NCBI RefSeq assembly: GCF_054482525.1 | Contig: NZ_CM137006.1 | Direction: 5' to 3' (one strand) | Length of the DNA: 64,000 nucleotides | Shown here: positions 15,136-48,442 of the stretch, piece by piece | Layout of the letters: every line of letters begins with the position of its first letter | Position numbering within the stretch: the first letter of the stretch is position 1 | Made by a program: the position numbers and the translations under genes | Notes under the pieces: model-generated | Told to the model about the DNA's origin: nothing | What the model saw: only the letters and a program-made list of their open reading frames with translations | The model's database searches: none

Positions 15136-15300
15136 AAAGAAAAAGGCAGCCTGTGGTTGCCTTTTGCCAATAATTCGCACACATTGCGGGTTACTGCTTT
15201 ATTTTCGTTCAGTGCTGATAACGAACATCAACCTGCAAAACGAAGCGCATAGTTTAAAATGGCTATCATCAATACGCTATATCTGATGGAAAAAAATATG
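15136..15300 (-). ncRNA. sraB: Candidate small RNA SraB (boundaries approximate)
   Basis: Intrinsic terminator (GGCAACC-ACA-GGCUGCC then UUUUUCUUU on minus strand, + coords about 15134..15161) sits about 36 nt upstream of yceD start; SraB reported in the yceF-yceD intergenic region (recalled); 5' end not determined. Confidence 0.4.
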
Positions 15301-15882
15301 CCTAAACTTATTTTAGCCTCCACCTCGCCCTGGCGTCGCGCTCTTCTGGAAAAACTGCAAATCTCTTTTGAATGTGCAGCACCCGAGGTCGACGAAACTC
15401 CACACAGCGACGAATCACCGCGACAGTTGGTGCTTCGACTGGCACAAGAAAAAGCGCAATCTCTGGCGTCACGTTATCCGGATCATTTAATTATTGGTTC
15501 AGACCAGGTATGTGTTCTTGATGGCGAAATCACCGGTAAACCGTTAACGGAAGAAAATGCCCGTCTGCAATTACGCAAAGCCAGCGGCAATATCGTCACC
15601 TTCTATACTGGACTGGCGTTGTTTAATTCGGCGAATGGGCATCTGCAAACAGAAGTGGAGCCTTTTGACGTCCATTTCCGTCACCTGAGCGAGGCGGAGA
15701 TTGATAATTACGTGCGTAAAGAGCATCCCCTGCACTGCGCGGGTAGCTTTAAGAGTGAAGGATTTGGCATTACGCTGTTTGAGCGTTTAGAGGGGCGTGA
15801 TCCTAACACGCTGGTTGGTTTACCGCTAATCGCGCTGTGTCAGATGTTACGTCGGGAAGGGAAAAACCCGCTGATGGGATAG
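15298..15882 (+). CDS. yceF: Maf-like nucleoside triphosphate pyrophosphatase
   Basis: ORF track 207 aa; start moved to [14 protein letters not shown] (194 aa). Confidence 0.88.
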
Positions 15883-17164: not shown

Positions 17165-17525
17165 GTTTCCGTGTCCATCCTTGTTAAAACAAGAAATTTT
17201 ACGGAATAACCCATTTTGCCCGACCGATCATCCACGCAGCAATGGCGTAAGACGTATTGATCTTTCAGGCAGTTAGCGGGCTGCGGGTTGCAGTCCTTAC
17301 CGGTAGATGGAAATATTTCTGGAGAGTAATACCCAGTCTGTTTCTTTGATAATTGCGCTGTTTTTCCGCATGAAAAACGGGCAACCGACACTCTGCGCCT
17401 CTTTGAGCTGACGATAACCGTGAGGTTGGCGACGCGACTAGACACGAGGCCATCGGTTCACACCCGGAAAGGCGTTACTTTGCCCGCAGCTTAGTCGTCA
17501 ATGTAAGAATAATGAGTAAGTTACG
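17165..17525 (+). promoter_or_regulatory. rne long structured 5' leader (RNase E autoregulation); 5' boundary approximate
   Basis: 572-bp non-coding gap upstream of rne; the roughly 360-nt autoregulatory leader is established knowledge; TSS not determined from sequence. Confidence 0.5.
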
Positions 17526-29305: not shown

Positions 29306-30001
29306 TTAAATTATCTGCCGTACTTCGTCGAGGGTGGTGGTGCCGTAAGTGCCGAGATCCAGCGTATTACCGTTGTTGCCGCGGATCACACCCTGCACCA
29401 GAGCAAACTGCAGCGGCTGGGCAACCAGTTGTGTACCACCGTTACTGGCGCTAATCGCTACGTTGTAAGAACCGTTCGGCGCAGTGCTGCCGTCAGTCAA
29501 CGTACCGTCCCAGGTGAAACTGTGGACTCCGGCGGTCAGTTCACCGATATCAATGGTACGGACAACCGCACCGTTTTTATCGGTGATGGTGGCCGTAACT
29601 TTGTCTGCCGCCTGTTGCAGCTCAACACCAAACGGCGTGGTCGTGGTCACAGCCCCTTCTTCACTGCCTGTTCCCGCAAGAACAGTGGTGCCGGGGATCA
29701 TCACGCCGTGACCGATCAGGTTACTGGCCTGTAACGACTGGCTGTTATCAATCTGTCCGGAAATAGATCCGAGCGTGGTATTGAGTTTTTCAATCCCGCT
29801 GACCGTGCTGATTTGTGCCAGTTGCGACGTCAGCTCGTTGTTTTCCATTGGATTGGTCGGGTCCTGGTTTTTCAGCTGCGCCACCAACAAAGTCAGAAAA
29901 CTGCTTTGTAAATCTGCGGCGTTGCTGCCCGTGAGCGAACTACTACTGGTGGTGCTGACGCCGGTATTTGTCGGATCGGTGGTGGTTACCGCAATGGACA
30001 T
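29306..30001 (-). CDS. flgD: Flagellar hook capping/scaffold protein
   Basis: ORF track 231 aa. Confidence 0.92.
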   Translation of the reverse strand: MSIAVTTTDPTNTGVSTTSSSSLTGSNAADLQSSFLTLLVAQLKNQDPTNPMENNELTSQLAQISTVSGIEKLNTTLGSISGQIDNSQSLQASNLIGHGVMIPGTTVLAGTGSEEGAVTTTTPFGVELQQAADKVTATITDKNGAVVRTIDIGELTAGVHSFTWDGTLTDGSTAPNGSYNVAISASNGGTQLVAQPLQFALVQGVIRGNNGNTLDLGTYGTTTLDEVRQII

Positions 30002-30420: not shown

Positions 30421-30837
30421 TTAATTTCCACTCTGTAAAACGTTCATCATGCCTTTGATTTGCCCGCTCAACGCGCTAAGGCTCATCTGGTATTGCAGGC
30501 TGTTATCGGCAAACTGGGTGCGTTCGCGATCCATATCGACGGTATTACCGTCAAGCGAAGGCTGGTCCGGAATACGGTATTGCAGTTCTGCGGTAGGAGG
30601 CGTCAGCGCCTGCGCCGGAATGTGTTGCGTTGAGGTCATCGTCAGTGCAACCACGCTTGTTGCATCCCGTCCACGTTGCATGACTTTTTTAAGTTCACTG
30701 GCAAAATCGATATCGCGAGCCTGATAACCAGGGGTATCGGCATTGGCGATGTTTGCTGCCAGCACTTCCTGACGCTGGGCGCGCAGATTGAGCGCCTCTT
30801 GTTGAAAACGTAAGGCGGCGTCGAGCTTATCGAGCAT
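30421..30837 (-). CDS. flgB: Flagellar proximal rod protein
   Basis: ORF track 138 aa. Confidence 0.95.
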
Positions 30838-30992
30838 ATCTCCTCCGCAGGTATCAAAATTCTGCCATCAGCTTAAATGCCTTTACGCGCGCGTTATCGG
30901 CGGAATAAACGCAAAATGGGTCGCTATTTATGCCGTTGATAGTCATTGCGGACAGGTACAATTCACGTTGTAGAAATGGCTGGGGGGCGAAA
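30838..30992. promoter_or_regulatory. Divergent flgB / flgA class 2 (FlhDC-dependent) promoter region
   Basis: 155-bp gap between divergent flgB and flgA starts; role from established flagellar regulon knowledge; binding sites not resolved here. Confidence 0.5.
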
Positions 30993-31652
30993 ATGCTGGC
31001 AATAAAACGTAGCGTGGCGATCATCGCGATACTGTTCAGTCCGTTAAGTGCGGCGAGCAATCTCACATCGCAATTGCACACCTTTTTTAGCGCCCAGCTC
31101 GCGGGGGTAAGTGATGAGGTTCGTGTTTCTATTCGTACAGCGCCCAATCTACTACCGCCGTGCGAGCAGCCATTGCTTTCGATGAGCAATAATTCCCGCC
31201 TGTGGGGCAATGTGAATGTGTTGGCACGCTGCGGTAACGACAAACGATATTTACAGGTTAATGTGCAGGCCACAGGAAATTATGTGGTTGCCGCAATGCC
31301 CATTGTGCGGGGAGGAAAGCTGGAAGCTGGCAATGTCAAACTGAAACGCGGACGGCTGGACACCTTGCCACCGCGTACGGTGCTGGATATCAATCAACTT
31401 GTTGATGCCGTTAGCCTGCGCGATCTATCACCCGATCAACCTATCCAGTTAACCCAGTTTCGCCAGGCATGGCGGGTAAAAGCGGGACAACGCGTCAACG
31501 TGATCGCCAGCGGTGATGGGTTTAGCGCCAACGCAGAAGGTCAGGCGCTGAACAATGCTGCCGTCGCACAGAATGCGCGGGTGCGCATGGTATCGGGACA
31601 AGTGGTCAGCGGCGTTGTTGATGCAGATGGGAATATTCTTATAAACCTGTAA
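30993..31652 (+). CDS. flgA: Flagellar P-ring assembly chaperone
   Basis: ORF track 240 aa; start moved to MLAIKRSVAIIAILFSPLSAA (219 aa, signal peptide). Confidence 0.88.
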   Translation: MLAIKRSVAIIAILFSPLSAASNLTSQLHTFFSAQLAGVSDEVRVSIRTAPNLLPPCEQPLLSMSNNSRLWGNVNVLARCGNDKRYLQVNVQATGNYVVAAMPIVRGGKLEAGNVKLKRGRLDTLPPRTVLDINQLVDAVSLRDLSPDQPIQLTQFRQAWRVKAGQRVNVIASGDGFSANAEGQALNNAAVAQNARVRMVSGQVVSGVVDADGNILINL

Positions 31653-31657
31653 GCTGT

Positions 31658-31684
31658 TAAAGATTACCCGTCCCTTGCCGATAA
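31658..31684 (+). promoter_or_regulatory. sigma28 (FliA) class 3 promoter for flgMN
   Basis: TAAAGATT-N11-GCCGATAA read directly, 44 nt upstream of flgM start; near-perfect match to sigma28 consensus TAAAGTTT-N11-GCCGATAA. Confidence 0.8.
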
Positions 31685-31727
31685 ATAAGCAACACATGAT
31701 AAAAGCGCCCTCAATGAGGAATAAACC

Positions 31728-32021
31728 ATGAGTATTGATCGCACTTCGCCTCTGAAGCCCGTAAGCACCGTTCAACCGCGCGAAACCACTGACGCGCCGG
31801 TAACGAACACCCGGGCGGCAAAAACAACCGCCTCCACCAGCACCAGTGTGACGTTAAGCGACGCGCAAGCAAAACTGATGCAACCCGGCAGCAGTGATAT
31901 CAATCTTGAACGTGTCGAAGCGTTAAAACTGGCGATTCGTAACGGTGAACTAAAAATGGACACCGGCAAAATTGCCGATGCGCTGATCAACGAAGCGCAG
32001 CAAGACTTGCAGAGTAACTGA
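31728..32021 (+). CDS. flgM: Anti-sigma-28 factor
   Basis: ORF track 97 aa. Confidence 0.93.
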
Positions 32022-32025
32022 TCGT

Positions 32026-32442
32026 ATGACACGTCTTGCAGAGATCCTCGACCAGATGTCCGCTGTGCTTAACGATCTCAAAACGGTAATGGATCAAGAG
32101 CAGCAACATCTCTCTATGGGGCAGATCAACGGCAGCCAGTTGCAATGGATTACAGAACAAAAAAGCTCACTGCTGGCGACGCTGGATTACCTCGAACAGT
32201 TACGCAGGAAAGAACCCAATTCAGCAAATAGCGTTGATATTAGTCAACGCTGGCAGGATATTACTGTGAAAACGCAGCAACTACGCCAAATGAATCAACA
32301 TAACGGCTGGTTACTGGAAGGACAGATTGAGCGCAATCAACAGGCGCTGGAAATGTTGAAACCGCATCAGGAACCGACGCTATATGGAGCGAACGGTCAG
32401 ACCTCAACAACTCATCGCGGCAGTAAAAAGATTTCGATCTGA
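32026..32442 (+). CDS. flgN: Flagellar export chaperone for FlgK/FlgL
   Basis: ORF track 138 aa. Confidence 0.92.
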   Translation: MTRLAEILDQMSAVLNDLKTVMDQEQQHLSMGQINGSQLQWITEQKSSLLATLDYLEQLRRKEPNSANSVDISQRWQDITVKTQQLRQMNQHNGWLLEGQIERNQQALEMLKPHQEPTLYGANGQTSTTHRGSKKISI

Positions 32443-32481: not shown

Positions 32482-34104
<1,623 letters not shown>

Positions 34105-39143: not shown

Positions 39144-39248
39144 TCACGAGGGCGCATTCGCGCCCTTTATTTTTCGTGCAAAGGAAAACGTTTCCGCTTA
39201 TCCTTTGTGTCCGGCAAAAACATCCCTTCAGCCGGAGCATAGAGATTA

Positions 39249-48344: not shown

Positions 48345-48442
48345 GCCAGATGTGGCGTGAACGCCTTATCCGACCTACAAAATCTTGCAAAATCAACACA
48401 TTGCAGGAGCGATGTAGGCCTGATAAGCGTAGCGCATCAGGC
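48345..48442. repeat. REP/BIME cluster (two REP units)
   Basis: GCCAGATGTGGCGTGAACGCCTTATCCGACCTAC and GTAGGCCTGATAAGCGTAGCGCATCAGGC read between yceK and opgH. Confidence 0.75.

Follow-up and report, generated by a model that had tools for sequence, protein, structure and literature searches.

The class 3 sigma-28 promoter of the flgMN operon in the flgA-flgM gap of an Escherichia coli chromosome

Gene neighbourhood and the sigma-28 motif

The DNA analysed here, a stretch of 64 kb that is referred to as the window throughout, belongs to the flg chromosomal region of Escherichia coli; a query of 701 nt around the site of interest matched 5,425 of 5,426 complete E. coli genomes (annotated flgA, flgM, and flgN). 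The motif TAAAGATT-N11-GCCGATAA was read directly on the plus strand at 31658-31684, within the 75 nt that separate flgA from flgM; past the flgA stop codon, the plus strand runs gctgt TAAAGATT ACCCGTCCCTT GCCGATAA ataagc AACACATGATAAAAGCGCCCTCAATGAGGAATAAACC ATG (Table 1). The last base of the -10 element (31684) is 44 positions ahead of the A of the flgM ATG (31728), with 43 bases lying between them. A sequence-only reading had placed a near-consensus sigma-28 promoter in this gap, 44 nt from the flgM start, and its coordinates, strand, and distance proved exact on direct reading. The motif is on the same strand as the downstream genes flgM and flgN and at a short distance from them, as is expected of a class 3 promoter.

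Table 1 Features of the flg region and other annotated elements in the window
Feature	Position	Strand	Basis or remark
SraB sRNA	15136-15304	-	Rfam gathering score
rne 5' UTR element	17165-17501	+	Rfam gathering score
Known flgKL class 3 promoter, TCAAGTCC-N11-GCCGATAA	23548-23575	-	17.6 bits
flgB	30421-30837	-	Transferred from identical record and ORF list
flgB-flgA divergent intergenic region (155 bp), FlhDC-dependent class 2 promoters	30838-30992	.	Converted FlhDC ChIP-seq peak
flgA, first gene of the class 2 flgAMN operon	30993-31652	+	Annotation; stop TAA at 31650-31652
-35 element TAAAGATT of the flgMN class 3 (sigma-28/FliA) promoter	31658-31665	+	Direct reading; starts 5 nt past the flgA stop
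11-nt spacer ACCCGTCCCTT	31666-31676	+	Direct reading; length constant and sequence variable among 78 loci
-10 element GCCGATAA, full consensus match	31677-31684	+	Direct reading; consensus in PMC2859248
Probable sigma-28 transcription start, most likely 31691 (A)	31689-31692	+	Published 5' UTR primers; aer promoter register
flgM class 3 5' UTR (ca. 37 nt)	31691-31727	+	Shine-Dalgarno GAGG at 31716-31719
flgM, anti-sigma-28 factor, 97 aa	31728-32021	+	ORF; RefSeq annotation of identical DNA
flgN, export chaperone, transcribed together with flgM	32026-32442	+	ORF and annotation; flgMN operon listed in PMC4183435
murJ	32482-34017	-	Transferred from identical record and ORF list
PyrC leader	39199-39248	+	Rfam gathering score
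ES036 (CssrF) sRNA	48379-48421	+	Rfam gathering score
ES056 sRNA	59293-59384	+	Rfam gathering score

Both strands of the window were scanned for the sigma-28 consensus TAAAGTTT-n11-GCCGATAA (Hollands et al. 2009, PMC2859248) with up to three mismatches. The site at 31658-31684 was the only one with a single mismatch, and two others carried three mismatches, one of them being the known flgKL promoter; ca. 0.55 matches with three or fewer mismatches are expected in the window by chance. A 28-column weight matrix was built from 50 FliA ChIP-seq sites (PMC4183435, Table 2), the two sites within this window being left out. When the window was scanned with this matrix, a check that the sequence-only reading had itself suggested, the flgM site scored 24.25 bits, the top score across both strands, and would come second in the full list of 52 published FliA sites. 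The maxima of 40 random 64-kb windows generated by a first-order Markov model averaged 14.42 bits (standard deviation, 1.50), with a highest value of 18.49 bits, and the flgKL promoter, which served as a positive control, was recovered by the same matrix at 17.6 bits. The two elements of a sigma-28 promoter are thus present 11 bp apart at 31658-31684, and the match is far beyond chance. The sequence-only reading had also described a difference from the consensus at one -35 position. An A does stand in place of T at position 6; however, A and T are equally common there in the 50 other bound sites (22 each) and swapping them leaves the score unchanged, so that this is no real deviation.

Like the flgM promoter, the flgKL promoter is a sigma-28 promoter that follows a class 2 operon (flgB-J) within a short gap and gives dual class 2 and class 3 input, and it starts exactly 5 nt past the flgJ stop codon, as the flgM promoter does past that of flgA. 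Its match is, however, weaker than that of the flgM promoter, and one spacer base is unlike that of MG1655 (G for T). Two further sigma-28-like matches, one antisense to pabC (7978-8005, plus strand, 17.95 bits) and one inside flgD in the sense direction (29576-29603, minus strand, 15.9 bits), were rejected because random sequence reaches such scores and the published FliA ChIP-seq list (PMC4183435) contains neither. The five Rfam matches in the window, namely the rne 5' UTR, SraB, PyrC leader, ES056, and ES036, are what this part of the E. coli chromosome should contain, and all lie away from the flgM promoter.

Conservation and identity with the published flgMN promoter

A scan for relatives of FlgM, with one genome taken per species, yielded 80 loci from Escherichia, Salmonella, Citrobacter, Enterobacter, Buttiauxella, Lelliottia, Cedecea, Kosakonia, Phytobacter, Atlantibacter, Leclercia, Yokenella, Trabulsiella, and other genera. 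Seventy-eight of these had enough upstream sequence, and the 200 nt ahead of flgM were scanned with the FliA matrix. In all 78 loci, the best upstream match was TAAAG[A/G][A/T]N-N11-GCCGAT (18.4 to 25.9 bits); TAAAG, GCCGAT, and the spacer length of 11 nt were invariant, and the spacer sequence varied. Position 6 of the -35 element was A in 70 loci, G in 8, and T in none. For the 71 full-length loci, the median best score upstream of flgM was 22.6 bits, as against 4.9 and 7.1 bits for control segments taken from within flgA and from flgN in these loci and scanned on both strands. When the loci were anchored on the motif, the mean column information was 1.81 bits in the -35 element and 1.82 bits in the -10 element, compared with 0.94 in the spacer, 0.78 in the upstream flank, and 0.70 in the downstream flank, a contrast that the anchoring partly forces; the matrix scan, which is not forced in this way, gave the same invariance. 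The constraint among the orthologues is thus above chance and specific to the promoter elements. Since the -35 element starts 5 or 6 nt past the flgA stop codon in 63 of 79 loci, the conservation is not due to coding constraint. Within the species, the 91 nt at 31645-31735 are at least 99% identical in 4,908 of 5,425 complete E. coli genomes. Well-characterised flagellar FliA promoters, except that of fliL, have been reported to be conserved at the sequence level (Fitzgerald et al. 2017, bioRxiv 10.1101/188474).

The 28-mer TAAAGATTACCCGTCCCTTGCCGATAAA is identical letter for letter to the FliA ChIP-seq site of flgMN in the E. coli K-12 list (PMC4183435, Table 2), so that in vivo occupancy of this sequence by FliA:RNAP has already been published for K-12. 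The K-12 site was reported with a peak centre at 1129384 and a motif centre at 1129409 (NC_000913.2) and a fold-above-threshold (FAT) value of 48 (Fitzgerald et al. 2014, PMC4183435). NC_000913 positions were converted to window positions through the flgM coordinates in both genome versions, which places the peak centre at ca. 31695 and the motif centre at ca. 31670. The peak is therefore displaced downstream from the motif centre by ca. 25 nt, a pattern that these authors describe for holoenzyme-bound promoters. flgMN is one of eight well-characterised sigma-28 promoters of K-12, and the Salmonella flgM promoter served for the mutational dissection of the sigma-28 consensus elements (PMC2859248). 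No difference was detectable between the present site and flgMp of E. coli K-12 (NC_000913.2), which has the same 28 nt, the same placement between flgA and flgM, and the same neighbours. The flgM class 3 promoter of Salmonella enterica (Gillen & Hughes 1993 and Wozniak & Hughes 2008, as cited in PMC2859248 and PMC4183435) shares TAAAGATT-N11-GCCGAT just past the flgA stop codon and the dual class 2 and class 3 expression of flgM. In the two S. enterica subspecies loci fetched, however, the -10 element reads GCCGATGA and the spacer is different, and the -10 element sits 59 nt ahead of the ATG, as against 43 nt in Escherichia. We identify the motif, with a probability of about 0.97, as flgMp, from which sigma-28 directs class 3 transcription of the E. 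coli flgMN operon. This promoter is already known and belongs to textbook biology; K-12 carries the same flgMp, and the class 3 promoter of flgM in Salmonella is its orthologue.

Transcription start and leader of the class 3 transcript

In a study that built flgM fusions 'from +1', three 5' UTR primers begin at AACACATGATAAAAGC (Romilly et al. 2020, PMC7549644). The flgM 5' UTR used experimentally thus begins at AACACATG, which is window position 31691, 7 nt past the last base of the -10 element. In the mapped sigma-28 promoter of aer, CGA occupies -11 to -9 (PMC2859248), and the same register applied to the flgM site gives a start at 31690. From these two lines, we infer that sigma-28-dependent transcription starts at 31689-31692, most likely at 31691, in agreement with the distance of ca. 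7 nt past the -10 element that had been predicted from the sequence. No entry at the expected start, in the coordinates of either NC_000913 version, was found in the portions searched of the Cappable-seq (PMC4782308) and SMRT-Cappable-seq (PMC6131387) supplements.

Within the leader, CCTC-NNN-GAGG is found on the plus strand at 31709-31719, its GAGG (31716-31719) being the flgM Shine-Dalgarno sequence. The same arrangement was present in all 60 distinct upstream segments from 79 Enterobacteriaceae flgM loci, 7 to 10 nt ahead of the ATG. CCTC and GAGG could form a 4-bp hairpin that masks the ribosome-binding site, a pairing that is invariant and hence gives no covariation evidence. A structured RNA element spanning the whole class 3 leader was rejected, as the minimum free energy of -8.3 kcal/mol was not significantly stable (z = 0.19), and no Rfam family overlaps the flgA-flgM gap. 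A second box, CAACAnATGAT, lies on the plus strand at 31690-31700, at or just past the inferred start, and is well conserved across genera, unlike the flanking leader. The distance from the -10 element to the flgM ATG was 43 nt in four other Escherichia loci, 43 to 45 nt in four Buttiauxella loci, and 57 to 66 nt in other genera, and the alignment has a leader gap of ca. 17 nt in the rows of Escherichia and B. izardii. A short ORF of 11 codons at 31696-31731 (plus strand) begins 5 nt past the inferred start and its TGA overlaps the flgM ATG (ATGA). It was set aside as a candidate since its length, frame, and presence are not conserved, and it is probably fortuitous. The CAACAnATGAT box and the CCUC-NNN-GAGG mini-hairpin might together form a class 3-specific translational control element, possibly the cis target of FlgN-dependent flgM translation, which Escherichia would have remodelled by losing ca. 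17 nt between the boxes; judged from sequence comparison, this idea is very doubtful.

Class 2 and class 3 input to flgM

The dual input to flgMN that had been expected, by class 2 read-through from flgA and from the class 3 promoter, is supported by the overlapping operons, the FlhDC peak, and the rescue of flgM by fliA reported for E. coli. ChIP-seq and RNA-seq back overlapping flgAMN (FlhDC, class 2) and flgMN (FliA, class 3) operons, and the FlhDC ChIP-seq peak for flgAMN/flgBCDEFGHIJ is centred at 1130152 in NC_000913.2 (PMC4183435), which converts to window position ca. 30927, within the flgB-flgA intergenic region. When fliA was overexpressed in an flhD deletion, flgM returned to the wild-type level or higher and flgA was not rescued (PMC4183435). 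Since flgM, but not flgA, was rescued by fliA, these results locate a FliA-dependent promoter between the flgA probe and flgM, where the motif sits. No terminator-like site was found on the plus strand in the 75-nt gap scanned between flgA and flgM, and this gap is compatible with read-through into flgM.

On this basis, FliA-carrying RNA polymerase binds the -35 element TAAAGATT and the -10 element GCCGATAA, 11 bp apart, and transcription would begin ca. 7 nt past the latter, near 31691, giving an flgMN mRNA with a leader of ca. 37 nt. The FlhDC-activated, sigma-70-dependent class 2 promoter upstream of flgA also feeds flgM by read-through. Following the established model of the flagellar cascade, FlgM would first be made alongside the hook-basal-body genes and would keep FliA inactive until the hook-basal body exports FlgM. 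The freed FliA would then transcribe flgMN, which closes a negative feedback loop on FliA activity and also furnishes FlgN for late assembly.

Other explanations of the motif and of transcription in the gap were weighed against flgMp. Sigma-28 consensus matches do arise randomly, as is illustrated by the chance-level matches scoring 15 to 18 bits at other places in the window, and the motif might be such a match without function. This reading is ruled out for practical purposes by the score of 24.25 bits against a random maximum of 18.5, by the retention of the motif in 78 of 78 orthologous loci, and by the published FliA occupancy of the identical sequence (PMC4183435). A different objection comes from the TSS atlas of Kim et al. 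2012 (PMC3415461), whose table lacks the sigma-28 start, an absence that counts against the promoter reading. The only flgM-associated 5' end in that atlas is 1129417 on the minus strand of NC_000913.2, with 14 reads and a UTR of 66 nt; it converts to window position 31662, which is the G in the TAAAG of the sigma-28 -35 element. This end may reflect weak sigma-70 initiation 7 nt past TAAGCT (31650-31655, a hexamer that contains the stop codon of flgA) or processing of the flgAMN mRNA, and in neither case conflicts with the sigma-28 promoter. It is unlikely that the relevant 5' end of the gap is such a FliA-independent one, whether a start, which would overlap the -35 element and might compete with it, or a processing site. 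Very few reads support it, neither TAAGCT nor the -35 candidates TGGGAA and ATGGGA make a good hexamer, and a sigma-70 consensus scan gave no promoter-like site on the plus strand in the gap. The FliA ChIP occupancy and the FliA-driven expression of flgM (PMC4183435) would also be left unexplained, and such an end, even if real, can coexist with the sigma-28 promoter.

How much the promoter contributes is a separate matter, and it is possible, though we hold this only tentatively, that a genuine FliA site is largely idle, nearly all flgM mRNA arising by class 2 read-through and the class 3 promoter mattering in filament repair, in swarming, or when free FliA is high. In exponential-phase motile MG1655, the flgM RNA value was 451 in the wild type and 318 in a fliA deletion, a difference that was not significant, and the authors assign FliA little contribution to dual-regulated transcripts under the conditions used (PMC4183435). 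Under other conditions, however, arrays recorded a 6.9-fold drop of flgM in a fliA deletion, as well as a 2.0-fold rise on FliA induction (Zhao et al. 2007, PMC1935009). The return of flgM to at least the wild-type level on fliA overexpression in the flhD deletion also speaks against an idle promoter, and the strict retention of both elements in 78 of 78 loci from many genera argues for selection on promoter function. An idle flgMp would in any case qualify the main explanation rather than give the motif another identity. In exponential-phase motile MG1655, the share of the class 3 promoter is modest and class 2 input is dominant for flgM; for the strain analysed here, the relative contribution of the class 3 promoter is something that we infer.

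The FlgM/FliA checkpoint, a textbook circuit, ties expression of the late flagellar genes to completion of the hook-basal body, and the flgM promoter makes up half of it. The E. coli strain analysed here carries the standard, fully conserved flgMN promoter, which adds nothing new to that circuit, and the case of flgM shows that sigma-28 promoters are recognisable from raw sequence. The features of the leader, namely the box at the start site, CCTC-N3-GAGG, and the shorter leader of Escherichia, might relate to class 3-specific translational control of flgM.
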